Notes: generated by a model not told the origin, from the letters alone. Shown: positions 6,001 to 57,736, counted from the stretch's first letter. The stretch is 64,000 nt of DNA from a bacterium (GCA_016202645.1 JACQOF010000146.1:620-64619), one strand, 5' to 3'. Translations and numbers: made by a program.

Positions 6001-6085
6001 GCGCGTCGCCAGCGGAGTCTACGTCTATCTCATCCGGCTGCCGAACGGGGAGCGGGCCGTGGGAAAGTTTTCGATTATCCGATGA
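2..6085 (+). CDS. Giant repetitive cell-surface protein, 5'-partial (>=17 tandem ~95-aa FN3/Ig-like modules plus a C-terminal T9SS-type sorting domain)
   Basis: The frame is open from the window edge. Nt 2 onward encodes FADTIDGV, which continues the repeat, so the 5' end is missing. Stop is TGA 6083-6085. At least 17 modules carry 'TGLYND(S/T)YYWRVRAIDxLGNxG', most preceded by 'P(A/S)DGHETT'. A non-repeat region starts at ~4870. The C-terminus 'VFPNPFKPNDG...GVYVYLIRLPNGERAVGKFSIIR' fits the T9SS type-A / FlgD-Ig-like sorting-domain pattern as I know it. Confidence 0.85.
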   Translation, partial: FADTIDGVMTSDTITGLYNDSYYWRVRAIDDLGNVGTNSAVRGFLTDTDVDTVDITTPLGSVVINTTLEVEWAPLADSSGIDSYVLDISNQDSFAVLYSSDTRDGTETSFLKNNLVSDTYFIRMHAIDNLVTRGAYTIKSFVLVDTMTRVTLISPDTSHETNAVQIDFKWGTQDNTETYTWQISKTAAFSVISDSVVDTSATSLRYSLPDEDTFYWRILGQDAAGNEDTSEPRWILLDTRVLQTTAAAPPNGHETTQTAVVVSWLKIASDSVGLDSYVLEASNTSGFIQFVFADTLDAAITQDTITGLYNDSYHWRVRGIDHLGNAGPNSAARGFVTDTLVNAVTLSTPADGHETTAVVVVATWLAVSDSVGVDSYAIEVSRTAGFTTFVFTDTIDGLLTSDTITGLYNDSYYWRVRAIDNLGNPGAFGSARGFVVTDTLVNGVTVTAPVDGHETTVIAVVASWEAVLDSVGIDSYAIESSRTSDFGVLVFSDTLDGLLTSDTITGLYNDSYYWRVRAIDNLGNRGSFGTARGFVTDTIVDAVTLSYPSTGHETTAINILAGWTAVSDSVGVDSYAVEVAKNLTFVNMVFTDTLDRLLTSDTITGLYNDSYYWRVRAIDDLGNQGPYSDTRGFVTDTIVNTVTLVYPSDGHETTAINFLVGWTSSDSVGIDTYAVDVAKNTAFTNLVFTDTLDALLTSDTITGLYNDSYYWRVRSIDNLGNQGTFGPARGFVTDTIVYAVTLVYPSDGHETTAINFLVGWTTSDSVGIDTYAVEVSKNTAFTNLTFTDTIDGVLTSDTLTGLYNDTYYWRVRAIDDLGNQGSFGAARGFVTDTLVAQVTVVSPADGHETTNAKPVVVWSAVAADSVGIDSYVVEVSNQSNFGTFVFADTVDQALAQDTVTGLYNDTYYWRVRAVDDLGNAGPNSSARGYVIDTIVTTVTLSYPSDGHETTAINFLVGWTTSDSVGVDTYAVEVAKNTAFTNLVFTDTLDALLTSDTIPGLYNDSYYWRIRAIDNLGNQGTFATARGFLTDTLVDSVTVISPLDQAQISSTLNLQWQALADSSGVDSYAIEISTTSAFTTLFSSDTVAGSDTTFTKTDFLSDTYFLRIRAIDNLDNRGTYTIISFGLTDTSTKVKLVSPDTGHETRAVTVEFQWGTQDNTETFTWQISRSPSFETFTDSVVDTTATSFKFSLPSEDTFYWRVSGVDQAGNRDTSASRWIFLDTRVSNVTILSPADAGETSNAGLTVTWAAVTSDSVGIDSYRVEVSNTSSFTIFTFVDTVAASITQSALTGLYNDTYFWRVLAIDHVGNTSPVPEVRSFLVDTSVETVTPVSPADGHETTAFSFVVTWQAVSSDSTEIDSYTVDVSTTSAFTTTVFSDTVDSPVTQDTITAPCNDTYFWRVRGVDRLGNRSAAWTARTFRVDTMASSVVLAAPAGGHETTQIQIVVAWNLVTDDSSGIDSYVIEVSNAASFTIFVFADTVSHPNASDTVTGLYNDTYFWRVRSVDRLGNVGSAASSRSFVVDTVTGRVVLSLPANGSSTVETAPNLSWLATADSVGIDTYAMEVSNAPDFSTLNFSDSVAGTLTDRTVSPGLAGDTYYWRVRAIDRLGNQGPYSDSYSFYVDTSTQPNPGIDAETFTTIPASTPAATSGFTLDTDGLPETFLIKLSVRNVGNVSLRISPDSTDLAIRNASGENIASQFNLISRTDTFTLGASADTTILYEATVPGSGAGVGAVVIVLAESRPLSVVTSTLQAVADTRGAETATVYLKQSTAGQTQITSGGISVGSLSSFPANTVISIVSVNFLSDTSKTSVTAANNNISAIATQIREIAGSRLDQSVTEINVSNQPAADIQITIPYDPAGLTADQETTLKVFTLNETVNPPVWEVLSGSQTVNAAGNTVTAATPHFSIFRIFSVGPGILNSLGSGVIVFPNPFKPNDGDDQTGTSGSGIYFGIKSGNGAAGFPKGATLEIFNVLGTHLTKAEVTTDAGGILNWDVTNRGGQRVASGVYVYLIRLPNGERAVGKFSIIR

Positions 6086-8637: not shown

Positions 8638-11600
8638 TTATCGAATGGACTTTCGTATTTTTTGCGCCTGGGCGGCCTCTTTGGACCCCGGATACCTTTT
8701 GGTCATCTCCTGAATGGCGGCCATGGCTTTGTCCTTTTCTCCCAGATCAAGCCGGATGCGGATGATGCCCAGAAGCGCCGCCGGCGCGATGCCGCGGTTT
8801 TCTTCGGGAGGATAGAGGTCCAACACATTGTAATAGGCGATCAGCGCTTTTTCAGGACGATCGCTCTCCGCCTCCAGCCGGCCCAGCCGATACTGGGATT
8901 CGACGGCCAGGAGCCCGCTGTAGGTGGCCAGTTTGCCTAGAATAAGCCGGGCCTTGGGGATCTCCCTGGTCTGAATCAGCGATTCGGCGTAAATCCGGCT
9001 GACCGGGGGCTGCATGCCCACAGCTGCGACCGCGTCGAGATGCCGGACCGCCTCCGCATGATTTCCCGCCCGATGCGCCAGCCACCCGAGCGCCAGATGA
9101 TGCTCGATCTCGGAACCGTCCGGCGGCGTCTGGCCAGACAGGAATTGGAGGCCGGCCGCGTCTTCCCGCTCCACGTAAATTCCCGCTAGCCACTTGAACA
9201 ACAACCGCCGCGCGTCCGGCGAGAGGTTCGTCCGCAGGTCCCAGGCTTGCCGCAGGAGCGGTTCGGCCCGCCGGTAATTTCTTTTTGCGGATTCGTACTC
9301 TCCGAGTTTTAGCGATGCCCACGCCGTAAAAAAAGTGTCCGGCGATCTGGATTGGACCAGCGCCGAAAAATCCCGCATGGCTTTGTCCGTGTCGCCCAGG
9401 GCCAATTTGGCCACGGCGCCGTGGTATTGGACGACGGCGTCGAAAAATTTGGGATGCGGCTCCAGCTCCCGAACCAGCCCAACGGCATCCGGATGGCGGT
9501 TTTCGGTTACCGCGTCCACCACCAGTTTGCGTGAGGCGGCCCGGACCCGGTCTGGATCGAGGCTGGATCGGAGAAGTTCGCCGAGAAATCGGCGGCCCCG
9601 TTCGCCGCGGACATCGGCGAGGACCATTCGGCGGTCCAGGGCCTGATCCTTAACGGCGGCGCCGGCCGCCGGATCGTTGATGATTTGCTTGTACATCTCA
9701 TCGGCACGCCCGGTTTGACCCAGATCCTCCTGGAGAGACGCCAGCGCCAGCCTCGCCTCGGTTTTTTTATCGCCGCCCACTCCAGTCGCCGCCAGAAGTC
9801 GCTCAAGGGCGCCCGATGCCTTCGCCTTATCGCCGGATGCCAGGGCGGCCGACGCGTACACCTCCATGGCTTTTCGTTGATGGGGTTCCGACGCCAGCCG
9901 GCCGCCAAAGGCTTCATAAAATCGAACGGCTTCCCGATGCAGGCCGGCCCGATGAACGGCCGCGATACCGAATATCACCGCTTCCTCATAGAAGGGAAGT
10001 CCGGCGCCTTTTTGAAGCACCTCATCGATATGCGGCAGAATTGATCCGGTGTCACCGCGGTCCAGGAGCAGTCCCGCAAGACGATATTTGGCGGACAGAC
10101 TTACTTCCGTATCGGCGGACCGGATGAGCCGCTGATAAATATCTTCCGCGCCGTTCCGGCCCAGCTTCAGGAGGCACTCCGCCTTGTAAAAATCAGCCCG
10201 GTCCGCCGCCGGCGGACTGAACTGCGCCGGATCAACTCCATCGAGCGCGGCCAGGGCCAGATCATGGCGTTCGATGGACAAGGCGGCTTGAATCGCGGCC
10301 AGCACCAGATCCGGATCGGTCCCGTATTGCCGGAGATGCCGGACAGACTGATCATAGTGTTCTTGAGGATCGCCGCGCCGTTCCGCGATCCGGACGCGCA
10401 GTCTCGACGACTCCCGGGCAAGGCGGTGATTCGGCATTTTGTCGAGCCGGTCGAGTTTTTCCCGCGCATCGTCCAGCCGATCCATGGCAAGATACAGCTT
10501 CGCGGCCGCCAGGGCGGCGTTGGGCGCCAGAAGACCCTCCGAGGTTGTGCTCAAGTACGACTCGAACCGGTCCACGGCCTTATCCGATTGATTCAGTTTT
10601 GTGTGGCAGAGTCCCTGCGCGTAGACTGCTTCCCAGGCCCACGCCGATCCGGGAAAGCCTTCTTCCGCCTGGAGGTAAAATTTCAGGGCCGCATCAAATT
10701 GGAGTCGATTGTAGAGGCAGTCCGCATATCTCAGCGCCGATTCAGCGCGAAGTTCGGTGTCGGCATTCGCCGGCATCCGCTTAAAAATATCCGCGGCCTG
10801 CGCGTACTGCTCCTCCTTGAACCAGGTCATCCCAACCCGGTAGAGAATATGCGCCAGCGCCGCGGGATCCCGGACGGCCTTCGCATGCTTCTCGTGCAAT
10901 CTTTTCAAATCGGCGCTTCGCTCGGAACGATAGTAAAGGTCTGAAAGGACGAGGACGGTTTTGTCCAGAATCACGCGGTCGGCCGCGCTGTCTTGAAAAA
11001 TCCGGGACAACGTCTTCTCGGCGACGTCGGGACGATTCAGCAGCATCTCGACGTATCCCATGTTGTAGAGCAGGGCGGGGTGGTCCCTCAGCGCCGATTC
11101 GGATTCCACCGTTTTCAGAAGGACATTCCGGGCGCCCGGATAATCCTGACGGGTCACTTTGGTCGATACGAGATTGTCGATGGCTGCAAAATAGAGGGTG
11201 TTTTTCCGGGGATCGCCCGGAACATATCGGGCCTGCGTCAATGCGCTCCCGAACCGGCTCTCGGCTTCCTCCCAGCGGGCTTCTTCAAAGGCCAAAACGC
11301 CCAGACTGAAATGGGCGTCCATCCTCCATTTTCCGGAGGGAAATCGATTCAAATATTCCAAATAATCCCGCCGGGCGGCGGTTGGATCTTTCTCGGCCTG
11401 GGCCAATCGGGCCTGCCAGAAAAGGATGTCCGAGGCCCACAGAGCCGCGTCCGACCGAACCGCCGGCCTTTGAAGCAGATCCTGAAACATCCGCCGCGCA
11501 TCCGTGTGCCTTTGGCCTTCATAGGCCGCCAGCATGCCGTAAAAAAGAATCCGGTCGAGGGACGTGTCCGACCCCGGCAGCGCGGAACCTGCCCGCCGCG

Positions 11601-13392
11601 CGCGGTCCAGGGCTTCATCATAAAGTCCGGCATCAAAGAAGGACACTACGACAAATTGAAAACTTTGGCCGGCGGCAAGTCTCTGAAGCAGCGCGTCGGC
11701 CTGCCGTACCGCCTCCGCCGGATCGCGCTTCAGAAAACTTTCGATCAGATGGGTGTGGGCCCTGTGGATCAGATCCGGTTCCCGGGCCAGTTTGGATGCT
11801 TGGAGGTAGCGCTGGCGCGCCGCATCCGGCTGCTCCGCGGCGGCGAGAATGTCTCCCATGAGAATCAGCCCGGAGGCGCGGGCCTGCGTATCCACAGACG
11901 GCAACGCCAGCAACCGGTCCAACAGGGATTTGGCGCGGGCATGGTCGTTCAGCCTGAAATAAGCGAAAGCCGCGGCGTAAAACGCCTCACGGGCATCCGC
12001 CGGGCCGGGCCTGCCCAACAGGCGTTCAAAGGCGCCCGCCGCCTCTTGGTACCGGCCCGTCGCCAGATACAGGTTCCCGTAAAACTCATCCAGTTTTGCG
12101 CCCAGGACCGGATCCGGCTTCGTGATCCGCCCGGCCGATTCGAGGGCCCGGGAATAATCTTTTAATTGAAATTGCGCCTGGGCCAGACTCAGGAGAACAA
12201 TATTCCGCCGGTCCGGCTCAACACCGGATTCCAGGGCGGCCTGAAAGGAACGTCCCGCCTCTTCCGCGGAACCTTTCGCCAGAAAGACATGGCCTTTGAG
12301 ATAATGGAGATCATAGGTTGGGCTTGTTACCCGGCTGAGGTGGTCCAGGGCGTTGTCCATTCTTTTTAGAAGAAATTCGCCTTCCGCCAGAAACAGGCAG
12401 GCCTCGTCCTGAATGGCGGTATCCTGCGAGCGATTCGCCAGATCCAACGCCCTTCGGGCGCGGCCGCCCGACGTGTCCGGCTGGCCGGCGCGGCGGGAAA
12501 TGGCGGCCATGCGAAGCCACGCCCCGGCCTTCATTTTGACCGGGATGTGCGGCGTTTGGATCAGACGAAAAAATTCCTCCTCGGCCCGCGTGTCATTTCC
12601 CATGGACAAAAACGCCCAGGATTTGTTCCATTGCGCCGTGTCCGCCCAATTCCCGGCCGGCGTGTCCAAACCGATCACCCGGTCGTACCAGACGATGCTT
12701 TCGCCAAATTTTTTTTGCTTGAATAAAATGTCCCCGATCTCCAGCAACGCCTCCACGTGCCTGCGATGATCCGGCTCCCGGGTGAGAGGCATCAGGGCCT
12801 GGACTGCCTCCACCGGCCGGCCCGAACGGCCCAGAATGCCGCCCAGATCGTAGTGGGCATCCAGCCGGTGTTCCGGCCGCAACTTCAGATTGCCGGTGAC
12901 GGATTTCAAAACGTCCGCCGCCCGGTCCGATTCTCCAAGCCGGCCGTGGCACTCAGCGGCCAGAAGCAGGCTTTCGGCGAGGATGTCCATCTCCTCGCCG
13001 GCGTTTTGCGCTGCCGCCTGGAAATAATCGATCGCCGGCCGGAATTGCCCAAGTTGATAAGCCGCGTACCCGGCGCCGTACTGGGCTCTCGAAAGAAACC
13101 GGAATTTCGGATGCTCCCGCACGATGCGGGCGTACAGATCGTACGACCGCGCATACTCGTTCAACCGGTCGTGCGTTTCAGCCAGCCAGTAGGTTGCCTC
13201 GACCACGCGCGGATCATTCGGGTAGGTGGCGGCGATCTCCTCGAAAACCAGTTTCGCGAGCCGGTATTCGCCGCGGTTGAACAACGCAACTCCGGAATTG
13301 AATTCCCGCGGGGGAATCCGGTCCTCCGCGGCCGCTGGAGAAAGCAGGCACCAGAAAAAGAAAAGACACACAAGGACTCTGGAAGACCGCAT
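8638..13392 (-). CDS. 1584-aa secreted tetratricopeptide-repeat (TPR) protein
   Basis: Signal peptide MRSSRVLVCLFFFWCLLSPAAA. TPR-like A/Y/L-rich helical pairs run throughout. The first and last ~100 aa resemble YbgF/CpoB-type TPRs (e.g. 'ALFNRGEYRLAKLVFEEIAATYPNDPRVVEATYWLAE'). Its ATG directly follows the TAA of the upstream OmpA-like gene. Confidence 0.85.
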   Translation of the reverse strand: MRSSRVLVCLFFFWCLLSPAAAEDRIPPREFNSGVALFNRGEYRLAKLVFEEIAATYPNDPRVVEATYWLAETHDRLNEYARSYDLYARIVREHPKFRFLSRAQYGAGYAAYQLGQFRPAIDYFQAAAQNAGEEMDILAESLLLAAECHGRLGESDRAADVLKSVTGNLKLRPEHRLDAHYDLGGILGRSGRPVEAVQALMPLTREPDHRRHVEALLEIGDILFKQKKFGESIVWYDRVIGLDTPAGNWADTAQWNKSWAFLSMGNDTRAEEEFFRLIQTPHIPVKMKAGAWLRMAAISRRAGQPDTSGGRARRALDLANRSQDTAIQDEACLFLAEGEFLLKRMDNALDHLSRVTSPTYDLHYLKGHVFLAKGSAEEAGRSFQAALESGVEPDRRNIVLLSLAQAQFQLKDYSRALESAGRITKPDPVLGAKLDEFYGNLYLATGRYQEAAGAFERLLGRPGPADAREAFYAAAFAYFRLNDHARAKSLLDRLLALPSVDTQARASGLILMGDILAAAEQPDAARQRYLQASKLAREPDLIHRAHTHLIESFLKRDPAEAVRQADALLQRLAAGQSFQFVVVSFFDAGLYDEALDRARRAGSALPGSDTSLDRILFYGMLAAYEGQRHTDARRMFQDLLQRPAVRSDAALWASDILFWQARLAQAEKDPTAARRDYLEYLNRFPSGKWRMDAHFSLGVLAFEEARWEEAESRFGSALTQARYVPGDPRKNTLYFAAIDNLVSTKVTRQDYPGARNVLLKTVESESALRDHPALLYNMGYVEMLLNRPDVAEKTLSRIFQDSAADRVILDKTVLVLSDLYYRSERSADLKRLHEKHAKAVRDPAALAHILYRVGMTWFKEEQYAQAADIFKRMPANADTELRAESALRYADCLYNRLQFDAALKFYLQAEEGFPGSAWAWEAVYAQGLCHTKLNQSDKAVDRFESYLSTTSEGLLAPNAALAAAKLYLAMDRLDDAREKLDRLDKMPNHRLARESSRLRVRIAERRGDPQEHYDQSVRHLRQYGTDPDLVLAAIQAALSIERHDLALAALDGVDPAQFSPPAADRADFYKAECLLKLGRNGAEDIYQRLIRSADTEVSLSAKYRLAGLLLDRGDTGSILPHIDEVLQKGAGLPFYEEAVIFGIAAVHRAGLHREAVRFYEAFGGRLASEPHQRKAMEVYASAALASGDKAKASGALERLLAATGVGGDKKTEARLALASLQEDLGQTGRADEMYKQIINDPAAGAAVKDQALDRRMVLADVRGERGRRFLGELLRSSLDPDRVRAASRKLVVDAVTENRHPDAVGLVRELEPHPKFFDAVVQYHGAVAKLALGDTDKAMRDFSALVQSRSPDTFFTAWASLKLGEYESAKRNYRRAEPLLRQAWDLRTNLSPDARRLLFKWLAGIYVEREDAAGLQFLSGQTPPDGSEIEHHLALGWLAHRAGNHAEAVRHLDAVAAVGMQPPVSRIYAESLIQTREIPKARLILGKLATYSGLLAVESQYRLGRLEAESDRPEKALIAYYNVLDLYPPEENRGIAPAALLGIIRIRLDLGEKDKAMAAIQEMTKRYPGSKEAAQAQKIRKSIR

Positions 13393-24815: not shown

Positions 24816-24914
24816 GTCATTCCCGCGAAAGCGGGAATCCAGTCTTCTTTGCGATGGGTCTGGCTGCCCGCCGAAGTTTACACCGTGCTGGATTCCCGCT
24901 TTCGCGGGAATGAC
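24816..24914. repeat. Palindromic interspersed element, family A (full copy A1)
   Basis: GTCATTCCCGCGAAAGCGGGAATCCAG ... CTGGATTCCCGCTTTCGCGGGAATGAC. Each arm is itself a CCCGC-GAAA-GCGGG tetraloop hairpin. The internal segment and a ~25-nt right tail are shared with copy A3. Confidence 0.85.
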
Positions 24915-37811: not shown

Positions 37812-37882
37812 GTCATTCCCGCGAAAGCGGGAATCCAGCCTGCTTCAGTATTGATCTGGATTCCCGCTTTCGCGGGAATGAC
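37812..37882. repeat. Palindromic interspersed element, family A (copy A2, short loop)
   Basis: GTCATTCCCGCGAAAGCGGGAATCCAG-cctgcttcagtattgat-CTGGATTCCCGCTTTCGCGGGAATGAC. Confidence 0.85.
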
Positions 37883-39542: not shown

Positions 39543-39641
39543 GTCATTCCCGCGAACGCGGGAATCCAGGCTGCCCTGCGATTGGTCTGGATGTCTGCCG
39601 GAGTTTACCCCGTGCTGGATTCCCGCTTTCGCGGGAATGAC
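39543..39641. repeat. Palindromic interspersed element, family A (full copy A3)
   Basis: GTCATTCCCGCGAACGCGGGAATCCAG ... CTGGATTCCCGCTTTCGCGGGAATGAC. The loop and right tail are near-identical to A1. Confidence 0.85.
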
Positions 39642-39691: not shown

Positions 39692-40879
39692 CTATGGGCT
39701 GGTGGGGTGCGACGGCGGCTGTCCGAAGAGGTCGACTTCCTCGTCTGTCCCGCCGACAGACTGAACGGTTGTCTCCAATATCTCAAAAGAGAGTTCTTCC
39801 GACGTTGAATTCTCAACGGCCGCCTCCGAAACCGGCTCGTCGGAAACTTCCGTGGTCACCGTCGCCGCCACCTCCTCGGCGGCGGTCGTACCCGAGGGCA
39901 AGATATCCGGCTGGACATTCTCCAGGATAAATACGTCCGGTTCTCTGACTGCCTCGATGTCCGTGGCATCCTGCACCGCCGCCTCCTCCCCGTCGCCGAT
40001 GACGATCTCTTCGCCGCCCGCAAGCTCCTCAAATGAGAGCGCCTCCCCCGGCTCCATCATCGCCGCCGCATCCTCGGCCGGTGCTCCCTCCTCGGAAGGC
40101 GCCGCCGCGGCATCCTCTCCGGCTACCTGGTTGTCCATGACGGATCCAAGCCATTGGTCGAGCGCTTCAGCAACAGCCGGCGCGGCCGCTCCGGGCCCTC
40201 CGCCGGCCGCCGCCGTGGCGGCTTCGGACACCGCGCCGCCCGCGCCCTCCGCGCCGGCGCCGGCCGGGGGCGCCGCCGGTGCGACCCCGAGCGCCATCTG
40301 GACCGCGGGCGGCAGGTTGGCCGGGTCGGACTGCCTCATGGTTCCCTCGCCGTCCTGGATCTTGCATTCGGTCCCGAATCCCTCGCCGAAACTGATTTCC
40401 TGCTGTGTTCCCCGAATGCCCGCGACCGCGGTTGGCGTCGTCACGGTGAACCGGTTGGTCTTGCCGCCCACCTGATCGGCCTTCGATACAATCTTGCCGA
40501 CCGACAAAAAGAGTTCCGTCTGAAATTCATTGCCGCTTTCGATGGCTCGCCCGACGACGAATTGGGTGAGGGGTTTGATTTCGGTGACACTGTTGGCGAA
40601 TTTAAGAAGGGCGGAGCCATCGATGCCGCTGTTGATCTGGTCCCCGGACTTGATGGACATGCCCGGCGTTGCCTTGACCCAATCCGCGGTGGCCCGCGGT
40701 TGGACTTCAACCAGACCATTGACTTCCATCAGAGTCCCGGTCATGGCGGTTTTTTGTTCCGCCGCCAGGGCCGGAAACCCGCCGGCCATCAAAAGGCACA
40801 GCCCGGCAGTGACGAACAAGCGAAGTCCCGCACTCTCTGATGGATCGCGCCGGCCTGTGACATGAGTTTTTTTCGTCAT
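39692..40879 (-). CDS. Secreted FecR-domain protein with an acidic Ala/Glu-rich C-terminal region
   Basis: Signal peptide ending 'PALAAE'. FecR-like core 'VNGLVEVQP...WVKATPGMSIKSGDQINSGIDGSALLKF...FTVTTPTAVAGIRGTQ'. The C-terminal ~190 aa is low-complexity A/E/G. Confidence 0.7.
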   Translation of the reverse strand: MTKKTHVTGRRDPSESAGLRLFVTAGLCLLMAGGFPALAAEQKTAMTGTLMEVNGLVEVQPRATADWVKATPGMSIKSGDQINSGIDGSALLKFANSVTEIKPLTQFVVGRAIESGNEFQTELFLSVGKIVSKADQVGGKTNRFTVTTPTAVAGIRGTQQEISFGEGFGTECKIQDGEGTMRQSDPANLPPAVQMALGVAPAAPPAGAGAEGAGGAVSEAATAAAGGGPGAAAPAVAEALDQWLGSVMDNQVAGEDAAAAPSEEGAPAEDAAAMMEPGEALSFEELAGGEEIVIGDGEEAAVQDATDIEAVREPDVFILENVQPDILPSGTTAAEEVAATVTTEVSDEPVSEAAVENSTSEELSFEILETTVQSVGGTDEEVDLFGQPPSHPTSP

Positions 40880-41382
40880 TTACTTTTCTCCGTCTGTTCG
40901 ACGGCGCGGCCGACCATGGCCATCAGTTCCGCGCCGCTCATGAACTCGTTGGCGTAGCTTCCCGCCGGGAGAAGCTTCTGCGCCATCCCGTCCCGGGCCG
41001 CGAAGCGGCGGCTGCCGGTAAAGATGCGGCCAAAAAGCCCCCGTTTGTCGGCGGCCGACCGCATCGCGTTCAAAAACATATTCGACGCCTCCCCCTTGGT
41101 CAGGGGCTGACGGGCATTCCTTCGAATGCTGCGCGGAAGCCGAACGCCCTCATCATACAAAAATCTCAGTTCGGCGTCCAGCAGATCCTGCCCGCGGTAT
41201 CCCTTGAACCGGGCGACGGCGCGGATGCCGTCCTCATGCGTTGCAACGGGCGCTTTCACAAGGGCTCGAAAAAAATCGTTCCCGCTCTGCGCCCGTGCAC
41301 CGGTTGGAAAAAAGAGAAGCGCAAAAACAAGGATCCTCGCTGCAAAGACAACTCCCCCGCCCTCGTAACTGTACGGATTCAT
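40876..41382 (-). CDS. Small secreted hypothetical protein
   Basis: 168 aa with signal peptide 'ILVFALLFFPTGARAQ'. It has 4-nt start/stop overlaps on both sides. No family recognised. Confidence 0.5.
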   Translation of the reverse strand: MNPYSYEGGGVVFAARILVFALLFFPTGARAQSGNDFFRALVKAPVATHEDGIRAVARFKGYRGQDLLDAELRFLYDEGVRLPRSIRRNARQPLTKGEASNMFLNAMRSAADKRGLFGRIFTGSRRFAARDGMAQKLLPAGSYANEFMSGAELMAMVGRAVEQTEKSK

Positions 41383-42896
41383 AGGTCGAACGACACTTTC
41401 AGCTTGAAATACTCTTCACTGCCCCTCAGCCCCCGGTAGGCGGGGCCGGGCTGAAAAAATCCGAACTTGAATTGGTACTTGACGTCGTCAAAAAATTTCC
41501 AGGAAATGACGGCGTCGTACTCGTCGCCGATGTCGTTGTCCGAGACCGCGGCGGCGGCGGCCGCGCTGGTCACGACTGCCGGGTCCGAGGTGGCGCCTCC
41601 CGGGGCGGCCGTCCAATAGGTGTATGCGGTGACCTGAAATGACATGTCGTTCCACCGGGCGCCCATCCTTGCAAAAGGCTTGACGCTCGCGCCTGCCTTC
41701 AAAATCCGGATATTGGCCAGGCTTGGCGAGAGGGCGTTGCCCATGCTGAGACCGCCGAAAGACCGGAAGAGCGAATCATCGCCGAAACTGGATCCGCCGC
41801 GCGAGGACGACGCGTTGGACCGGTCGGCGTCGCCGCTGCCGTAGGCGTATTCCGTATAGAGGGTGGGCGCCAGGTCCCCGCCGAAGAGATACCGGAGTCC
41901 CACGTCGAGCGCCTCCGCGTCGACGTTCACCTTGGACGACATGAGACCGGGGACGCTGTTGGCGTCGTCATACGTTTTGCCGCGGGCCATGATGAATTCC
42001 GACCAGTACTTGAGTTTTTTGAAAAACGTTCCGTCCAGGCCGAGGCCGTAGTACTGCGAATCGAATCGGTGGCGCTGGGTGCCGGCGCCGGTGCTGTAGG
42101 CCTGTTCCGTGTTGCGGTCCTTGTTCCAGAGCGTATAGACGCCCAGCTTGGCCCATGAACGGAACTTGTGATTGTATTCGGCGCCCCAAAACCAGCGTTT
42201 GGTGCGGCCGGATCCGGGCGAGAGCGCGTCGATGTTGTTGTCTCCCGGTTTTTGGCGCATGAACAACAGGCTTGCCGTCATTTTCCGGCCCTTGGATTCC
42301 CAATAAATCCCGTCGGCCGTCAGGCCGTAGGCGATGCCGCGGCCCACCATGGAAAACTGCCGGCCAAGCGTCAGCGTGTGTTTGAGAGCGGCGCCTTCGA
42401 ACTTCCGCTCGAAATAGGCCATGTCGATTTTGGCGTTGTTGAAATCGGAACCCCGGATGGCCGGCGAATTTTTTTTGGTTTCGGTGTAGAGGGTCCGGGT
42501 CCGCGCGTAAAATTTGGTCCGGCGGTCGACGCTGGAGAGCACAGAAAAAAGATTGACCTCGTAATCCCAGGAATGGTCCTGGCTGTCCGGCGTCGTCCGG
42601 TCCCGGTCGTTGTCGTTGGAGCCGGTGTAGGCGAAAGATGAATTTCCGCCATAATCAAACAGCCAGCCGCGTTTGTCCCGCCGCGCGCGGAGGGCTGCCG
42701 CAGTCAGTTCCTCCGTCCGGCGGAGGTCTTCCGTCGTTTCGATCCGTTCGCGGCGGAGTTCTTCTTCGGAGATCTGGGCGTTAGCCGGGAGGGAGAAAGG
42801 GAGAAAGGGAGAAAGGGAGAGAGGAAAATAGAGAAAGGACATGGAGAAGATAAATAGGGAGAAAGGGAAACCCCTGGCCAGATAGAGAGTCTTCAT
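41379..42896 (-). CDS. Outer-membrane beta-barrel protein (alginate-export-like by eye)
   Basis: Signal peptide ending 'LPANAQ'. A charged coiled segment is followed by a long alternating beta pattern, including 'LTLGRQFSMVGRGIAYG', which resembles the Alginate_exp family. ATG 42896 overlaps the upstream stop. Confidence 0.6.
   Translation of the reverse strand: MKTLYLARGFPFSLFIFSMSFLYFPLSLSPFLPFSLPANAQISEEELRRERIETTEDLRRTEELTAAALRARRDKRGWLFDYGGNSSFAYTGSNDNDRDRTTPDSQDHSWDYEVNLFSVLSSVDRRTKFYARTRTLYTETKKNSPAIRGSDFNNAKIDMAYFERKFEGAALKHTLTLGRQFSMVGRGIAYGLTADGIYWESKGRKMTASLLFMRQKPGDNNIDALSPGSGRTKRWFWGAEYNHKFRSWAKLGVYTLWNKDRNTEQAYSTGAGTQRHRFDSQYYGLGLDGTFFKKLKYWSEFIMARGKTYDDANSVPGLMSSKVNVDAEALDVGLRYLFGGDLAPTLYTEYAYGSGDADRSNASSSRGGSSFGDDSLFRSFGGLSMGNALSPSLANIRILKAGASVKPFARMGARWNDMSFQVTAYTYWTAAPGGATSDPAVVTSAAAAAAVSDNDIGDEYDAVISWKFFDDVKYQFKFGFFQPGPAYRGLRGSEEYFKLKVSFDL
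42791..42822. repeat. Octamer array GGGAGAAA x4 (array E2), inside the barrel gene's signal-peptide coding region
   Basis: GGGAGAAA x3 plus GGGAGAGA, with further degenerate copies up to ~42872. On the coding (minus) strand this reads TTTCTCCC and encodes '...[14 protein letters not shown]...'. Confidence 0.9.
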
Positions 42897-45800
42897 ACCA
42901 GCCCGTAGTACATCTTTGTCAGGCGCCGGCCGACGGGATGAGACAGGATCGTGTCACGCAGGTTGCGCAGGGCGCGGGTCAGGAAGGAATCCGATCCAAA
43001 AGTTTGGCGGATGACGCAGACCGCCGGGAGTTTGACCTTGCTGAGAAGGCTCGGTTCTTCGGCGGCCAGGCTGAAGGAACGGACTTCGCCCGCGGCGGAT
43101 GAGTAGGTGTAGGAGGAATTTTTTCGAAGGTCCGTTTCGATCCCGGTCGTGCGGTCGGTCAGGGTGAGGGGCACGTCCGACGGGACGGACGCGACGTTCC
43201 CCGCGCGGACCGTGACGTTGCCGGCCTTGCCGGACGAAACTTCGATTTCCCAGGCCGGCTCTTCGACGCCGGACAGGAACGCGCTTGAATATCTCGCGTC
43301 GCCGCTCCGGATGGCCAACTGTACGCCGTCGGGAGAATTCGGGGCTTTGAAAATCGGGTCTGTCGGCTGCGGCCGGACGCCCACGACGTTCATCAGATCG
43401 GAATATTTTCCGGACTGGGCGATGAGCTGGATCGTCCAGTCGTCGCTTTTTTTCGGCGCGAGGGGAGCCGCGGCGACGGCGAGGCTCGGGGCGGAGTAGT
43501 CGGAGTGGATCGGCGCGCGATAGGTGGCCGTCGTGATCCGGGCCGCTCCCTGGGCACTCCCGCTGGATACGGGCGGCGGAATGACAAGCGTGCAGGAGGA
43601 ATTGGCGTAGACCCACTGGCCTTCGAAGGGATAGAAATAACACTGGGTCCGGCCGAAGGACGCGTTCGGGCAGTCCTCGTAGCCGAAGGACGCGCCGAAA
43701 TAAGCGTGAAATCGTTTGACGAGAATCCCGCTGTCGGCGGCGGTGTCGAGGTCGACGATGTTTCCGGCCGCCGTCTGAACCCGCATCCAGTCGATCGAAT
43801 AAACCTGCTCGAACGGCGTTCCGACCTGGTTCCAGCCGGGGTCGAGCGGGAGGTACTGGGTGTCGGTGAGCGCGCTGGAGTTTGTCGCATCGACGATGAT
43901 GAGTTCGGTTGCCAGGGTCTTGAGCCAGTAACCCCGGCCCGTTTTCAGGGAAGACGGTTCTGATATGGCGTCCGTCGTCGGATCATAGCCGTACATCTTC
44001 CATGTGCCGGAGGGAATGCGGCTGTTGGTGGTGAGGATCGTCGAGGGGCTTGCGCTCGCCGGCTGACGCGGCAGGGCAAACATGAACCAGTCATCGCCGG
44101 GCCAGAGTGTGATGCCGGAGGACGTCGCAAAGAGCAGGACGTCCCCGCCGCCGCTGTCGCCCGACAGGGATGCTTTGACGGTGTAGATGCCCGGTTTGTT
44201 GCCGAGCGTGAGGCGCGTATAAGCGAGGCCAAATGCGTCGGTGGTGGTCTGCTCCGTATCGAGGTCCTGTCCCGTTGCGCCCGAAGGGGTTTTGAATATG
44301 CTGAAAGTCACGGTCACGCCCGGAAGGGGAATGGAATTTTGATCGGTGAAAACTCCAAAGGGAGAGTTTGTGTCTGGATAGACGAGCAGTTCATTAACCT
44401 TCACGACGAAATCCTGGTCCAGGGCCGTACCCGTGTCGCCCGACAGCCAGCTGACGATCCCTTCGATCTGCGTCGAATCCGTCGGCGTCGCCGGCGCGCC
44501 GGCGACGAACCAGCCGAGCAGGCCGGCGTTGGCGGAGAGCAGGGTCGTGTCATTGGTTACGTCCTTGACGACGGTCGTCGACAGGGTATCGAACTGCGGT
44601 CCCGCGTTGGCCATCTGGAAAATGGCGACGGTGTCGGCGGCGTAGTTGAGCCAGGCGTTTTCGAGAAGCACGGAGGAAAATTTGTTCTGAAACGTGGTGG
44701 CATCCGACCCCGCGTCCGCCGCCAGGCCGTTCGTCGCGGTCCACGGCACCACGCGGACGGCCTGGCCGGCGAAGTGGCCGAAGTTTTTAATCTTGTACGT
44801 CTCGAACGGCTGAAGTCGCTTGGGGTTGCTGAACATCACCCGCACGTGATGCCCGCTGGCGGTTTCTTGCGGCGTGAAGGTCAGTTTCCAGTAGTCGCTG
44901 CTGCCGTAAGTGGTCCTGCGGATCAGAGTCACAGCCGCGCCGGTCGCGCCGAACTTGATGTCGACGTTATCCGGCAGCCACCAGGAATTGGAATAGATGC
45001 TGTTGAGGTCGATGGTTTGCGTCGTAGTCACGATGAAGTAGGTGTCCGGCTCGTGGATATGCAAAAACAGATTTTCCGCCGTCATCCCCGGCAGGATGCC
45101 GCTGAAGGTCGCGTCAAAACCGGCGAACTCGCCCCATTCCGGAGACCGGCCGCGCGGCGGGTCCAGGTCGTGAAGCGTCGTCCTGTCCGGCGGATCCAAA
45201 AACAACGTCTCGGGCGCGACGGCCACGCCCCCGATGTCCAGATTCGCCTTGTTGGGCTTGAATGTGTAGGTGTCTCCCATCAACAGACGCCCGACCGTGT
45301 CGGAATGCCATCTGAAAAAATCGGCCAGATGCGTGTCGGTGACGAAGCGGTCGTCCCACGTGTCGGTCAGGACGATGCGGCGGATGAAGTCGGTGTTGGT
45401 CGTGCTTTCGGAATCGGATTTGGCGTCGAGAAACAGCAGGGCCTCGTTGACCTTCGAATCGATCTCGATGATCGACTTCCATGCCGTGTCCCAGCTGTGG
45501 TTCGCGGTCAGAAGGTTCGGGTGGTTCGCCCGGAATTCCTCCCAGGAGGTGGTGTCCGGAATGTTTTCCGGGGTCTCGGTCACGTCCAGATTGTAGGACG
45601 TGAGAATCGTGAGGATGGCCTTGTACCCCAAAAGGACGGAGTGCATGAAAAGAATTTCGGTTTTGTCGATTTCGTAAGTGTCGGAGCCGCCGGCGTCGTC
45701 GTTCAGGTTGCCCGGAAAGGCAAACGCCGTGTTCGCGTTGGCCGCTGCTGTGAGATGCGCTTCGACATGAGGAAACGTATCGGCCAGAATCCGATCAAGG

Positions 45801-46288
45801 ATGGCTTGGGCCGTGGAGGCCGTCGGATCCGTGCCCCAGGAATATTCCCGATAGGTGTGGCCTTCCCCCGAAACAATGATCGAATCAATGTCCTCCCCTT
45901 GATTGACGCGGGACAGATATTGGCTGATCGTCGCCGAATCGGAACCGTTGGAAAAATCCAGCCGAAGCGAGGCGAGGGCGGGGTCGTCGACGATTTGCGC
46001 CAGTTCCAGAATCGCCGCGAAGACATTCGCGCCGGCGTGGGTCGGATCGAGAGCCAAAGCGGCATGAAACCGCCCCAGCGCCGATGGAATGTCAATCGCG
46101 CGGGAATCTTCCAGATAGGCTAGACCACTATCGTACTCGTCACCCGCAGTTGCCTCGGCCGGGACACACGGAGACACACCGGCCACAAATAGCAGACCAA
46201 CCACAAGCCAGGCAATGGACCTGCCCGGCCAGAATACCAACGGACGCACCCTCCCTGCGCCCCAAAGGGGGCTTCTGATCATATACAT
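42893..46288 (-). CDS. 1131-aa secreted protein of unknown function (helical N-domain, beta-rich core with an Ig-like segment, Cys-initiated C-terminal box)
   Basis: Signal-like 'IAWLVVGLLFVAGVSPCVPAEA'. Ig-like stretch 'LPGVTVTFSIFKTPSGATGQDL...GIYTVKASL'. C-terminal 'CVIRQTFGSDSFLTRALRNLRDTILSHPVGRRLTKMYYGLV'. First gene of a four-gene operon with 4-nt start/stop overlaps. Confidence 0.7.
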   Translation of the reverse strand: MYMIRSPLWGAGRVRPLVFWPGRSIAWLVVGLLFVAGVSPCVPAEATAGDEYDSGLAYLEDSRAIDIPSALGRFHAALALDPTHAGANVFAAILELAQIVDDPALASLRLDFSNGSDSATISQYLSRVNQGEDIDSIIVSGEGHTYREYSWGTDPTASTAQAILDRILADTFPHVEAHLTAAANANTAFAFPGNLNDDAGGSDTYEIDKTEILFMHSVLLGYKAILTILTSYNLDVTETPENIPDTTSWEEFRANHPNLLTANHSWDTAWKSIIEIDSKVNEALLFLDAKSDSESTTNTDFIRRIVLTDTWDDRFVTDTHLADFFRWHSDTVGRLLMGDTYTFKPNKANLDIGGVAVAPETLFLDPPDRTTLHDLDPPRGRSPEWGEFAGFDATFSGILPGMTAENLFLHIHEPDTYFIVTTTQTIDLNSIYSNSWWLPDNVDIKFGATGAAVTLIRRTTYGSSDYWKLTFTPQETASGHHVRVMFSNPKRLQPFETYKIKNFGHFAGQAVRVVPWTATNGLAADAGSDATTFQNKFSSVLLENAWLNYAADTVAIFQMANAGPQFDTLSTTVVKDVTNDTTLLSANAGLLGWFVAGAPATPTDSTQIEGIVSWLSGDTGTALDQDFVVKVNELLVYPDTNSPFGVFTDQNSIPLPGVTVTFSIFKTPSGATGQDLDTEQTTTDAFGLAYTRLTLGNKPGIYTVKASLSGDSGGGDVLLFATSSGITLWPGDDWFMFALPRQPASASPSTILTTNSRIPSGTWKMYGYDPTTDAISEPSSLKTGRGYWLKTLATELIIVDATNSSALTDTQYLPLDPGWNQVGTPFEQVYSIDWMRVQTAAGNIVDLDTAADSGILVKRFHAYFGASFGYEDCPNASFGRTQCYFYPFEGQWVYANSSCTLVIPPPVSSGSAQGAARITTATYRAPIHSDYSAPSLAVAAAPLAPKKSDDWTIQLIAQSGKYSDLMNVVGVRPQPTDPIFKAPNSPDGVQLAIRSGDARYSSAFLSGVEEPAWEIEVSSGKAGNVTVRAGNVASVPSDVPLTLTDRTTGIETDLRKNSSYTYSSAAGEVRSFSLAAEEPSLLSKVKLPAVCVIRQTFGSDSFLTRALRNLRDTILSHPVGRRLTKMYYGLV

Positions 46289-46301
46289 ATACAGTATTAT
46301 A

Positions 46302-47756
46302 TTAGGGCTGCTGTGTCAACGCGAATAGATGCACATCATATCCGCCCAGATCCAGATAGAGCCCATTCGACCGGACGTCACCCGCGTCCCGGTCGTAGGT
46401 TCGGTCACTGAGAAGATCCCGGAACCGGATCGTTGTGGGGCCTTCCGGCAAGGGCAGTCGGACGCGGCATTGGGAAGGATCGCCGGCGTAATTGGCGACC
46501 GCCAGCCGGCGGTCCTTGCCGTTTTCCCACCAGAAACAGAACATCCGTTCATGGCTGAAATTTTCTTCCCAAGCTTGGAGACTTTCCAACATTTGCCAGG
46601 ACTGCTCCCAAGCCGCGCCGGTCGGAAGCGCCGCGATCAGTTTTTCATAGAATTCGGAAACGTCTGGGTCGGGCGTTTCGTGCGGCCGCCGCCGGAGTTG
46701 CACGGGAATTTTGGCCTGCCGGCCCTCCAACTGGCCTTCGTAAAAAAAGCGGATGCCCGGGAGCGCATACGTGATGACCGCCGCCGCGCGGAAGCGATCG
46801 CCGAGAAAGACCGCCGCGGCCCGGGGTTCGTCGTGATTTTCAAGAAAGTGCGCCGAGCGCGCGTGGAATTCCGGGCCGGCCTCAAGATGAGCGCGGATTG
46901 GAGCGGCGTGCCCGTCGCGCAGGCGGTCGCCCAGGCGTTTGTCGTAGGTGAAATCAAATCCGAGTTTCTGCAGATCCGATTCGAGGTCCCAGTAGACTTC
47001 GGCGAGAAACAGGAAATCCTTCCGCCGCGCGCGCACCGCCGAGATCACGTCCGCCCAGAACTCCGTGGCCGGTTCGGGGCCGGCCCGGTCTCCCCAGGTT
47101 TGTTTGAAAATCCGGTTCAACAGAAGCATCGCCATGTCACAGCGGAGGCCGTCGCAGAGTTTGGTCAGGCCGAGGATCTGGGCAATCATGGCCTTGCGGG
47201 CGTCCGGCGAGAAAACATTGATCTGCACCGTGTCGGACCAGCCGTCGAAGTAGGGGTCCCGGCCGTGCGCGAAGATCCGGGCGCCGGCGCGCGTCCTGGC
47301 CCTGAAAAAATTCTGAGGCGCCTGTCGCAGATCCTCCTCCGTGCCCTGTACGAACCGGCCGGGATGGCTCGTGACCCAGGGATGGTCCGGCGCCATGTGG
47401 TTCGGCACCAGGTCCAGCATGAGGTGGAGGCCGCGCCGCCGGAGTTTGTTTCGGAAACGTCCAAGCGCCGCCTCGCCGCCGAGTTTGGAGTTTACCCGGT
47501 AGGATTTGATCGCGTAGGGAGACGCGACGACGTCGGCCTTTTTCGCGTCGGGCAGAACCGCCCGGATTTCTTCGTTCAGCCCCCGGTGCGCTTTCGCGAT
47601 CCGTTCGCCCTTTGGGCTGGGCTCCCACACGCCCATGAGCCAGATGACGTCAAAGCGGCCCGCCCACTCGGCCACCTCCGCGTCCGGGACGTCGTCCAGG
47701 GTGGACCATCCCTGCTCGCGCAGCCAGACGCGGGTGTTGATTTCGTAGAGGCGCAG
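46302..47756 (-). CDS. GH13 alpha-amylase-family glycoside hydrolase (probable CTG start, or read-through from the upstream ORF)
   Basis: GH13 regions 'DLVPNHMAPDHPW', 'GLRCDMAMLL', 'FLAEVYWD' and 'FLENHDEPR'. The tracked start (GTG 47675) would omit the first barrel strand, 'LYEINTRVWL', which is encoded in frame upstream. The only start-like codon before that strand is CTG 47756-47754. Confidence 0.8.
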   Translation of the reverse strand: MRLYEINTRVWLREQGWSTLDDVPDAEVAEWAGRFDVIWLMGVWEPSPKGERIAKAHRGLNEEIRAVLPDAKKADVVASPYAIKSYRVNSKLGGEAALGRFRNKLRRRGLHLMLDLVPNHMAPDHPWVTSHPGRFVQGTEEDLRQAPQNFFRARTRAGARIFAHGRDPYFDGWSDTVQINVFSPDARKAMIAQILGLTKLCDGLRCDMAMLLLNRIFKQTWGDRAGPEPATEFWADVISAVRARRKDFLFLAEVYWDLESDLQKLGFDFTYDKRLGDRLRDGHAAPIRAHLEAGPEFHARSAHFLENHDEPRAAAVFLGDRFRAAAVITYALPGIRFFYEGQLEGRQAKIPVQLRRRPHETPDPDVSEFYEKLIAALPTGAAWEQSWQMLESLQAWEENFSHERMFCFWWENGKDRRLAVANYAGDPSQCRVRLPLPEGPTTIRFRDLLSDRTYDRDAGDVRSNGLYLDLGGYDVHLFALTQQP

Positions 47757-47759
47757 TGG

Positions 47760-48809
47760 TCAGGAGCCGAGCTGGTACAGCTCGATGCCGCGAAAGAGAA
47801 ACAGGATTTCTCCGGGTTCCCGCGAAATGGGGCGGCCGGAAAAAATATACTCGCCGGGCTGGGAAAAAAGCATGGGAACGAGCAGCACCGATTCCGAACT
47901 GGCAAACGGCCAGGAAGTCGCCGGTTCGAGAGTCCCCCGCGAGATGGACCGGGTTTCAATTTCCATCGCCGTCAGACGCGGCATTTCTCCGGGATAGGCC
48001 GTGAAAGGCTCCATCTGCATCGCCATCAGATACCACCCGGGAATTTCGGCGCGGATCACGATCTCGAAACTCGTCTCCGGGCCGCCGGAGATCGATTCCT
48101 GAAGGTTCACGTTCTGGGCGGGCGTGAGGGTGATGTTCCGGACCGTGAGAGAGAGGCTTCCGTAGCGGGTTCGGATTTTTCGGACGGCCGGCGTGACCGT
48201 GAGGCCGAGGGGCCGGACGTGAAGCTTGTCGGATTTTTTTCCGACCGTGATTTTTTCGACCCAGGGCTTGTAGTAGGGCGTTTCCAGAAACGTCCGCCGC
48301 ACCCGCAGGCCGAATTCGTCGAGCGGCAGGGACGGCATTTCGTCTTTTTTCGGGGGCGCGATCTGGCCCGCCGGAACTTCCTGCCCGGGCGGCGCGCCGG
48401 GCGTCTCTTCGGATTTTGGTTTCTCGCCGGCCGGATCAACGGCGGATCCGGTCACGCTCGCTTCCCCGGTCGCCTCCCCGCGCCGGGCGCGAAGGACGAT
48501 CTTCCAGGGCCTCCGCGATTCCTCAAGGTCCCGCTCGGATATGTCCCAGGAGTATTCGAAGGGGTTCTTCGAGGCCGTCCCGCGCCACCGCGAGAGAAAC
48601 TGGCTGGGATCGTAGAGCGCAACGTCCAGAGACTTCGCGCTCCCCTCCCACTTGCCCGTTAGAACAACCTTCCCCGGTCCCTTCGGCTGGAACACCAGGG
48701 TCTGCTTGTCCTCGCGGTTTTTCAGACTGAACGGCTCGGCGCCGGCGTACGGCCCGGAACAGAGGACCCACGCCGCCACGAGTACGCACACACCAAGAAT
48801 GCGGTTCAT
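47760..48809 (-). CDS. Secreted hypothetical protein (two domains joined by a Pro-rich linker)
   Basis: Signal peptide MNRILGVCVLVAAWVLCSGPYAGA. Linker 'EKPKSEETPGAPPGQEVPAGQIAPPKKDE'. No family recognised. Its TGA is in the same frame as the GH13 gene. Confidence 0.6.
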   Translation of the reverse strand: MNRILGVCVLVAAWVLCSGPYAGAEPFSLKNREDKQTLVFQPKGPGKVVLTGKWEGSAKSLDVALYDPSQFLSRWRGTASKNPFEYSWDISERDLEESRRPWKIVLRARRGEATGEASVTGSAVDPAGEKPKSEETPGAPPGQEVPAGQIAPPKKDEMPSLPLDEFGLRVRRTFLETPYYKPWVEKITVGKKSDKLHVRPLGLTVTPAVRKIRTRYGSLSLTVRNITLTPAQNVNLQESISGGPETSFEIVIRAEIPGWYLMAMQMEPFTAYPGEMPRLTAMEIETRSISRGTLEPATSWPFASSESVLLVPMLFSQPGEYIFSGRPISREPGEILFLFRGIELYQLGS

Positions 48810-48968
48810 GTTTCGAACAACTAAAACTTACCCCCGGGCGGAGGGCAAGGGGGTTCGTCCCCGGCATTGGAAGAGGATTCATTTTTCATGATTGCCGACC
48901 TGACCCGCCAAAGGTATCGTCTGCCGGATGAATCTTTCCGACACCGAAAAGCGGGAGGTGGAGATGAT

Positions 48969-57709: not shown

Positions 57710-57736
57710 GTCATTCCCGCGAAAGCGGGAATCCAG
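57710..57736. repeat. Family A element, single arm (copy A4)
   Basis: GTCATTCCCGCGAAAGCGGGAATCCAG. It overlaps the last codons and the stop codon of prfC. Confidence 0.8.

Follow-up and report, generated by a model that had tools for sequence, protein, structure and literature searches.

Four overlapping genes on the minus strand of a 64,000-nt stretch of bacterial DNA (GCA_016202645.1 JACQOF010000146.1:620-64619, hereafter the window) encode, in order of transcription, a very large secreted protein, a β-barrel of the AlgE/Alginate_exp family, a small protein resembling a triple S-layer homology (SLH) domain and a FecR-domain protein. These genes are inherited together as a unit that is multiplied within genomes of Candidatus Lindowbacteria, and their sequences suggest that the operon may well provide the cell envelope with a docking station for the large protein, whose gene comes first. 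An earlier note on this DNA had described an operon of four genes joined by three 4-nt start/stop overlaps; an open reading frame (ORF) listing of the window places the four minus-strand ORFs exactly where first described, at 39692-46288, and the junctions read ggtATGA, cctATGA and taaATGA. ATGA is the commonest overlap type in prokaryotic operons, so these overlaps alone are unremarkable and constitute weak evidence. The same 4-nt overlaps are kept in several paralogous cassettes (e.g. loci L001, L011 and L014) and in the Omnitrophota gene pairs L020 and L022. Third-position GC is 0.66-0.77 in all four ORFs, which is typical of the coding frames of the window. The signal sequence that the earlier note had assigned to every product can be read by eye at all four N-termini as an n-region, a hydrophobic core and an AxA-type site, with putative cleavage at ANA↓Q, ARA↓Q, ALA↓A and AEA↓T across the four products. 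The source gene annotation uses internal GTG starts for the large gene (P0030, 1094 aa) and the small gene (P0024, 127 aa), which would remove both signal peptides as well as the ATGA overlap between the small gene and the barrel gene. Homologues of 159-190 aa (small) and 1077-1141 aa (large), whose hydrophobic N-terminal segments align, favour the long forms of both genes.

Related loci were collected by a barrel-alignment scan of one genome per GTDB species, followed by tblastn, phmmer and iterated hidden Markov model searches on the loci found; the E-values of these iterated searches include the training sequences and serve detection only. This yielded 16 distinct Lindowbacteria-type cassettes, in all of which (16/16) the small gene directly follows the barrel gene. 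The FecR-domain gene comes after the small gene in 14/14 cassettes with enough sequence, and in 11 of the 14 that could be assessed the barrel is preceded by a large protein that has the common C-terminal module. Multiple copies occur within single metagenome-assembled genomes (MAGs), with at least six cassettes in RIFCSPLOWO2_12_FULL_62_27 (L007, L009, L011, L012, L014 and L017) and at least five in nzgw232. Flanking genes are unlike between orthologous cassettes, which indicates that the four genes move as a unit. The earlier note had named a lack of joint occurrence outside this genome as grounds for abandoning its proposal; the four genes do co-occur beyond the source genome, at the frequencies given above.

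The closest barrel homologues (62-67% identity) belong to Candidatus Lindowbacteria MAGs and metagenome contigs, and the next group, at ~30% identity, to Omnitrophota. Outside Lindowbacteria the small protein is the one partner that the barrel retains. Its gene sits directly upstream of the barrel gene in 14 loci from Omnitrophota, Planctomycetia and one Gemmatimonadales MAG, with the same 4-nt overlap in some of these pairs, and just downstream of it in a Scalindua locus (L033). Barrel and small protein form the conserved, smaller and older two-gene core of the cassette. Family F2 of the Omnitrophota loci was considered as an equivalent of the FecR-domain protein and rejected as unrelated. 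A third conserved gene family, unrelated to FecR, is found next to the small-barrel pair in Omnitrophota, Planctomycetia and Gemmatimonadales loci (L019, L020, L022, L024, L026, L027, L030, L032, L036 and L038), mostly transcribed divergently from it. Its product is secreted and carries the motif W.YNPNDDRGQGN..MLDPYGHDKDSDR..YGNRGR, followed by a Pro/Glu-rich tail in some members and, instead, by a CarboxypepD_reg C-terminal domain in others.

The 168-aa product of the third gene is basic (pI 10.4) and has no Pfam match. Its AlphaFold2 model has a mean predicted local distance difference test (pLDDT) score of 69, rising above 80 in the core, and Foldseek comparison with the PDB returned triple-SLH domains as ten of the ten best matches, including those of Bacillus anthracis Sap (6bt4, 3pyw) and P. 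alvei SpaA, as well as 6cwn and 7sv4. These matches span nearly the whole domain (149-178 aligned columns; probability 0.6-1.0, TM-score 0.43-0.51, E-value 0.03-0.7), and the predicted model shows the three-pronged helical spindle fold of SLH domains with moderate strength. A profile of 80 family members matches the Sap SLH domain at E 3.9e-4 through three repeat-wise sub-alignments and has no other significant match among PDB sequences, where a shallow alignment of the protein had returned nothing; structure search and sequence profile thus agree on the SLH likeness. Three SLH-like repeats can be read in the protein itself: ATHEDGIRAVARF, PLTKGEASNMFLNAM and MSGAELMAMVGRAV. The family is rare, with 99 representatives at E ≤ 1e-3 in an exhaustive HMMER search of 1.84e9 proteins. 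Nearly all of these relatives stand alone at 150-230 aa, one is fused to the peptidoglycan-binding domain LysM and none to a barrel, the longest (516 aa) being a fusion with a FecR domain. From its predicted fold and family profile, the small protein is probably a divergent SLH-type wall-binding module. The earlier note had called it simply periplasmic, which falls short of this more specific likeness.

The alginate-export likeness that had been suggested for the barrel was borne out by a near-full-length match of the 505-aa protein to PF13372 (Alginate_exp; E 9e-18, 64.6 bits against a gathering cut-off of 25.2, profile positions 11-384 of 395), which places it within this family. A precomputed PF13372 annotation is present on 22 of 23 barrel homologues, and a PDB sequence search with the barrel profile gave no match. 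Directly after the signal peptide, the barrel carries a charged N-terminal segment, SEEELRRERIETTEDLRRTEEL, that is conserved across the family, including its Omnitrophota members. This segment is presumed to form a periplasmic helix or stalk, its helical or coiled-coil nature being read from the sequence pattern only. Family membership invites the idea of an exopolysaccharide export unit, in which the AlgE-like barrel would export a polymer and the large protein, with its helical TPR-like N-terminus and weak matches to the PrsT TPR-lipoprotein family in 2/7 orthologues, would take the part of AlgK, PelB or BcsC. We consider this very unlikely. The scanned neighbours include no alginate or other exopolysaccharide synthesis genes and no periplasmic scaffold genes, and no synthase, glycosyltransferase, polymerase, PCP/OPX or modification gene lies in or beside any cassette examined. 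The cassettes also number six or more per genome and adjoin a different giant protein with Ig or PKD domains each time, and the TPR-like part is not kept among paralogues, which share only a β-rich module. The earlier note had left open either a dedicated apparatus that exports or anchors the large protein or a polymer-export unit, and the evidence favours protein handling or anchoring.

The product of the last gene was described earlier as a FecR-domain protein with an acidic tail. The tail is clear (aa 196-395, pI 4.05, 42 D/E and one K/R), while the match to PF04773 (FecR) reaches 22.4 bits, just under the cut-off of 24. This domain is common to all cassette homologues, and the tail ends in a proline motif, DLFGQPPSHP, that is kept in the closest cassettes and replaced by PPxRP-like variants in others. 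The best family matches are to the Leptospira surface protein and lipoprotein families Lsa33 (NF047849; E 5e-12, 45.6 bits against a cut-off of 420) and LipL45 (NF033165; 34 bits against 350). With scores below both cut-offs and no lipobox at the signal peptide (FPALA↓AE), the protein belongs to neither family and has the domain alone in common with them; a PDB sequence search gave nothing. Lindowbacteria are treated as the phylum closest to Spirochaetes (10.1101/2025.07.04.663154), and this kinship fits the Leptospira-like matches. A link between this protein and the small SLH-like protein is supported by a natural fusion in one lineage, P0051, in which an SLH-like region (aa 82-209) is followed by a FecR domain (aa 242-390). 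Three contigs, drawn from both NCBI and JGI assemblies, encode this fusion and place it immediately downstream of a barrel of the Alginate_exp family. In L016 and L017, the FecR domain heads a protein of 1292-1552 aa, which in L017 contains thrombospondin-type-3 repeats.

A weak FecR match could also point to trans-envelope signalling, with the FecR-domain protein sensing the state of the barrel and controlling a sigma factor, but this explanation is close to refuted. The domain starts ~45 aa from the N-terminus, right after a cleavable-type signal peptide, and the sequence has neither a cytoplasmic anti-sigma domain nor a transmembrane anchor. Neither an extracytoplasmic function (ECF) sigma factor nor a TonB-dependent transducer occurs among the flanking ORFs scanned in the window or the Pfam-annotated genes of L001, in agreement with the earlier note, which had seen neither a partner sigma factor nor a TonB-dependent receptor. 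These three observations argue that the protein is not a FecR regulator, and its best family matches are surface proteins and lipoproteins rather than anti-sigma factors. The cassette supplies a defined partner context for FecR/LipL45-type domains, which are routinely mis-annotated as iron regulators.

The large protein consists of a signal peptide, a ~400-aa helical TPR-like N-terminal region, a β-rich middle, a module at aa ~647-1089 and a basic helical tail. The module comprises a Big_1-like Ig domain and ~370 aa of β-rich sequence (~440 aa in all), and is the only part that every paralogous cassette has in common in its large protein, the N-terminal parts being unrelated. The Ig-like segment proposed earlier is visible as a Big_1 match at aa 646-712, albeit below the gathering score (29.9 bits against 34.9). 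The large protein, called passenger-like in the earlier note, is no single conserved passenger and joins a variable N-terminal part to the conserved module. Jackhmmer searches located one copy of the module, always C-terminal, in each of 11 distinct cassette-linked proteins (466 to 3310 aa) and none in the remaining ORFs of 42 loci and of the window, including the window's other giant protein with a C-terminal sorting domain (CTD). The module has no Pfam or PDB sequence match beyond Big_1, and its profile retrieved from the PDB only the CTD of PorU, by way of the paralogues' CTD. A model of the large protein was dropped for structural inference owing to its mean pLDDT of 44.6, and its Foldseek matches, generic tandem Ig-like domains of intimin D0-D1 and complement C3 with TM-scores below 0.1, were not used.

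What follows the module differs between cassettes. Seven paralogues continue with a ~95-aa domain that, in the six scanned, scores 28.9-38.1 bits against TIGR04183 (cut-off 23), the type-A sorting domain of type IX secretion systems (T9SS). Judged by these domains, sister cassettes carry T9SS-type cargo. The window protein and its orthologues (L001, L008, L010 and a short ORF in L043) have in the same place a ~45-aa basic tail, and no match to the T9SS type-A sorting domain (TIGR04183 / PF18962) was found on the 1131-aa protein. This tail (pI 10.9 at aa 1090-1131, three predicted helices) contains a motif invariant among orthologues, C..(x6)G..R..RD..(x7)GR.L...YY, with invariant columns C1091, G1098, R1108, R1111, D1112, G1120, R1121, Y1127 and Y1128. 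Against the CFI-box-CTERM model NF041770, it scores 12.2 bits where the cut-off is 40 (positions 16-41 of 69), and 3/7 orthologues match weakly at E ≤ 1 (best 0.04), so the resemblance is at motif level only and does not amount to membership; a literature search for ‘CFI-box’ found no paper. The L009 barrel is 62% identical to that of the window yet is partnered with a CTD-type cargo, which shows that barrel clade and tail type are not linked. A minimal cassette is found at L043 147-4341 and L044 (MAG binchicken_co21_210 / JGI 3300009444), with a module-plus-tail ORF, a barrel and a fusion of the SLH-like and FecR domains; the L043 ORF has 400 aa, consisting only of the cargo module and the CFI-like tail, with its N-terminus near the contig edge.

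The pairing of one cognate barrel with each cargo, together with a conserved C-terminal module in every cargo, could also describe a dedicated outer membrane secretion system in the manner of two-partner secretion or Slam (type XI). The barrel itself would then be the translocon, recognising the C-terminal module of the adjacent protein and threading this protein to the surface, while the SLH-like and FecR-domain proteins would act as a periplasmic chaperone and a wall-anchored scaffold. The 18-strand pore of AlgE-type barrels is wide enough to admit an extended polymer, and the window cargo, which lacks a T9SS domain, needs another route if it is surface-exposed. However, most sister cargos already bear the sorting domain of another system above its curated cut-off, and none of the four proteins has a Pfam or NCBIfam match at E ≤ 1 to POTRA, two-partner secretion (TPS), autotransporter β-domain or DUF560 families. 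No member of the AlgE family is known to translocate protein, and for cargos that reach 3310 aa and contain folded Ig and β-helix domains an energy source would be needed, which the cassette does not provide. On balance, translocation through the barrel appears unlikely.

The cargos have a surface character, with PKD and Big domains in cassette cargo (fn3 occurs in the window's other giant ORF). The cargo of L006, which was scanned in full, has PKD, Big and Big_1 domains, and parallel-β-helix-like repeats can be read in that of L009. PKD domains and such repeats are common in glycan-active surface proteins, and an alpha-amylase-family gene ends 13 nt upstream of the first ATG of the operon. 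The cassette might on these grounds be viewed as a wall-tethered nutrient porin that works with a capture protein on the surface: a polymer would be bound or degraded by the giant protein and the products would enter via the barrel, following the logic of a polysaccharide utilisation locus, with a dual role like that of OmpM, which joins tethering and uptake (PMC10628300). Such a role is rather improbable, given that no catalytic domain was found in the window's large protein or in the scanned C-terminal parts of cargos (only the L006 cargo being scanned over its full length), and that a simple porin leaves both the module and the FecR-domain partner unexplained. The alpha-amylase-family gene was also rejected as a fifth conserved member, as it is not kept beside orthologous cassettes; it is in keeping with trehalose and glucan genes elsewhere in the window.

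The arrangement that we propose for the docking station would start with Sec export of all four products. The AlgE-family barrel would span the outer membrane, its conserved charged N-terminal helix reaching into the periplasm, and the basic SLH-like protein would bind both the barrel and peptidoglycan or a wall-linked polymer. Together, these two proteins would do the job that OmpM and SlpA perform as single chains, namely tethering an outer membrane barrel to the wall. The LipL45/FecR-type protein would bind the SLH-like protein and add a long, acidic and flexible arm with a short proline motif at its end. As an adaptor, the large protein's conserved C-terminal module would dock on the barrel complex, leaving the variable N-terminal part to carry out a lineage-specific job. 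Most paralogous cargos probably use a T9SS-like route, given their type-A sorting domains; these CTD-bearing proteins would cross the outer membrane in this way and then be held by the cognate barrel, in parallel with the retention of type-B cargo by PorP/SprF barrels. The CTD-less large protein of the window could be surface-exposed or could act as a periplasmic TPR-like scaffold. Any probability not taken up by the docking station or by the alternatives weighed above belongs to some other function.

Several observations weigh against this proposal. The small protein has degenerate equivalents of the TRAE motif (THED, TKGE and SGAE), the Pfam SLH model matches 0/80 family members at E ≤ 1, and the SLH evidence is moderate overall (Foldseek E-values of 0.03-0.7, TM-scores around 0.5). 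Three cassettes (L005, L016 and L017) have no module protein upstream: in L016 and L017 the FecR-domain protein is itself very large (1292 and 1552 aa), and the FecR-domain ORF of L005 runs off the end of its contig. The concept of a ‘cargo’ is perhaps too simple in view of these three loci. For the large protein, the AlphaFold2 prediction, made with seven sequences, was of low confidence, and the lack of a T9SS domain along with the TPR-like N-terminus would also suit the periplasmic scaffold mentioned above.

Precedents exist for both halves of the proposal. OmpM of Negativicutes and SlpA of Deinococcus are SLH-barrel tethers that connect the outer membrane to the wall (PMC10628300, PMC9388160). 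They share with the present system an SLH-type module, a periplasmic helical segment and an outer membrane β-barrel, and the order of SLH-like gene and barrel gene in the Omnitrophota-type loci mirrors the domain order of OmpM. In contrast to these single polypeptides, module and barrel are encoded here by separate genes in all loci, and each chain has three SLH-like repeats in the style of Sap and SpaA rather than one SLH domain per trimerising chain. The barrel is of the Alginate_exp family and not of the OmpM/SlpA type, the SLH motif is degenerate and escapes the Pfam SLH model, and binding to the wall is a prediction. The pair also occurs in phyla reported to be without OmpM or SLH/CsaB. 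Outer membrane tethering has been described as divided between SLH/OmpM in Terrabacteria and Pal, OmpA or Lpp in Gracilicutes. A survey reports OmpM absent and SLH/CsaB ‘practically absent’ from Gracilicutes (10.1101/2021.05.31.446380). A bolder and more doubtful version of our proposal is that the two genes constitute a ‘split OmpM’ outside Terrabacteria (in Omnitrophota, Planctomycetota, Gemmatimonadota and Lindowbacteria), which in Lindowbacteria was multiplied and, by gaining the LipL45/FecR arm and a dedicated adaptor module, extended into docking stations that each serve one giant surface protein, T9SS-type ones included. If true, the cassette would represent a new class of apparatus for anchoring surface proteins, and it would contradict the reported lack of SLH-based tethers in phyla on the Gracilicutes side. 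The conserved SLH-like/barrel pair of Omnitrophota, Planctomycetota, a Gemmatimonadales MAG and the Spirochaete sister phylum would offer a testable object for the evolution of such tethers.

The second precedent is provided by PorP-like barrels, which anchor adjacent type-B T9SS cargo (PMC9143113, PMC12618676). In pairs such as SprB-SprF and PG1035-PorP, a large surface protein is likewise encoded beside its own barrel, many pairs occur per genome and the barrel's proposed role is to keep its cargo at the surface; the sister cassettes described here have genuine T9SS-type sorting domains. They differ in having an Alginate_exp barrel, sorting domains of type A instead of type B and two extra partners, SLH-like and FecR-domain, while the window's large protein has no T9SS domain at all. 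The likeness to AlgE-AlgK and the TPR-porin exporters PelB, BcsC and PgaA lies in the Pfam family of the barrel and the TPR-like helical region, whereas here there are no polysaccharide synthesis genes, the cassette is multi-copy and the conserved part is the β-rich C-terminal module and not the TPR-like one. Leptospira LipL45 and Lsa33 also have a FecR-type β domain directly after the export signal, but scores here are far under the cut-offs, there is no lipobox, a 200-aa acidic tail is present, and the literature searched does not mention any constant pairing of the Leptospira proteins with a barrel and an SLH-like protein. Slam and two-partner secretion systems resemble the cassette in the placement of a cargo gene beside a dedicated barrel and in a conserved cargo domain as the recognition element; they involve other families, with no DUF560, POTRA or TPS domain here, and translocation through the present barrel is hypothetical.

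The earlier note had not recognised the operon as a described system, and no gene scores above the cut-off of a characterised system except for the match to Alginate_exp, a generic fold family. Literature searches on the alginate export family and on LipL45/FecR yielded no description of these genes in combination. Each part belongs to, or resembles, a known fold family, while the profile libraries and the literature searched contain no described system with this combination. The proposed working principles, a split SLH-barrel tether and a cognate cargo barrel, have precedents and so would not be categorically new. The cassette would be a second example of ‘one barrel per cargo’ after PorP/SprF and is a candidate answer to how uncultured lineages hold surface proteins of 1000-3300 residues on the cell. 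The features of the operon are listed in Table 1.

Table 1. Positions of the operon genes, their parts and the adjoining palindrome pair in the window.
Feature	Position	Strand	Basis
Large secreted protein, 1131 aa	42893..46288	-	ORF call; orthologues 46-53% identity
Cassette module, aa ~647-1089 of large protein	43022..44350	-	jackhmmer, alignment
C-terminal tail of large protein, aa 1090-1131	42896..43021	-	invariant columns among orthologues
AlgE / Alginate_exp family outer membrane β-barrel, 505 aa, with signal peptide	41379..42896	-	PF13372
Charged N-terminal segment of mature barrel, ~aa 41-80, SEEELRRERIETTEDLRRTEEL	42657..42776	-	family alignment
Small secreted triple-SLH-like protein, 168 aa	40876..41382	-	AlphaFold2, Foldseek, family profile
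LipL45/FecR-domain protein, 395 aa	39692..40879	-	PF04773, NF047849
FecR-type β domain, aa ~45-195	40295-40747	-	within 395-aa protein
Acidic disordered tail, 200 aa	39695-40294	-	within 395-aa protein, composition
Inverted pair of REP-like 20-nt palindrome ATTCCCGCGAAAGCGGGAAT	39546..39638	.	palindrome count in window

The scanned neighbours of the operon in the window encode alpha-amylase-family, MoCF, hexapeptide transferase, acyl-CoA dehydrogenase, ThiI and similar proteins. No T9SS component was found among the window ORFs scanned, and a porin-cytochrome conduit was rejected, as no CxxCH motifs are present. Around other cassettes, a lipoprotein of ~240 aa lies upstream in L008 and L010 and was considered as a fifth gene, but it is absent from the window and from L001; a relative of it also occurs elsewhere in L012. 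In L005, four tandem small secreted proteins are encoded before the barrel (2830-5575), three of them with weak or faint matches to Metal_resist (Spy/CpxP-like).

Downstream of the operon, the inverted palindrome pair lies 54 nt after the last stop codon and is the probable 3′ boundary of the transcript, with a putative role as terminator or stabiliser. The dispersed REP-like palindrome, ATTCCCGCGAAAGCGGGAAT, has seven sites in the window against 0.16 expected by chance (24819-24911, 37815-37879, 39546-39638 and 57713-57732), mostly as inverted pairs 45-73 nt apart. The three sites checked (37815-37879, 39546-39638 and 57713) lie between predicted genes or at their ends. At the other end of the operon, an AT-rich stretch at 46289-46330, TAATATAATACTGTATATGTATATGATCAG, is directly upstream of, and overlaps, the first start codon; it includes the hexamer TATAAT and an incomplete CTGT-N-CAG palindrome and lacks any obvious Shine-Dalgarno sequence.

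The region 46302-48827 (minus strand) holds a 355-aa ORF without a family match and the alpha-amylase-family ORF in one frame, with a single TGA between them (47760-47762). The conserved amylase-like N-terminal sequence, LRLYEINTRVWL, starts directly after this TGA and has no canonical start codon near it, and the split ORF is possibly a pseudogene, a sequencing error or a case of read-through. Two further long ORFs were recorded in the window. One of these (8638-13392, minus strand) encodes a 1584-aa protein made up almost wholly of TPR repeats. The other (2-6085, plus strand) is a giant ORF of more than 2027 aa that is cut off by the start of the window, lacks both an adjacent barrel cassette and the cassette module, and contains fn3 and Ig-like domains followed by a terminal T9SS-CTD-like domain (TIGR04183 21.7 bits, with a cut-off of 23; CHU_C 23.1 bits).

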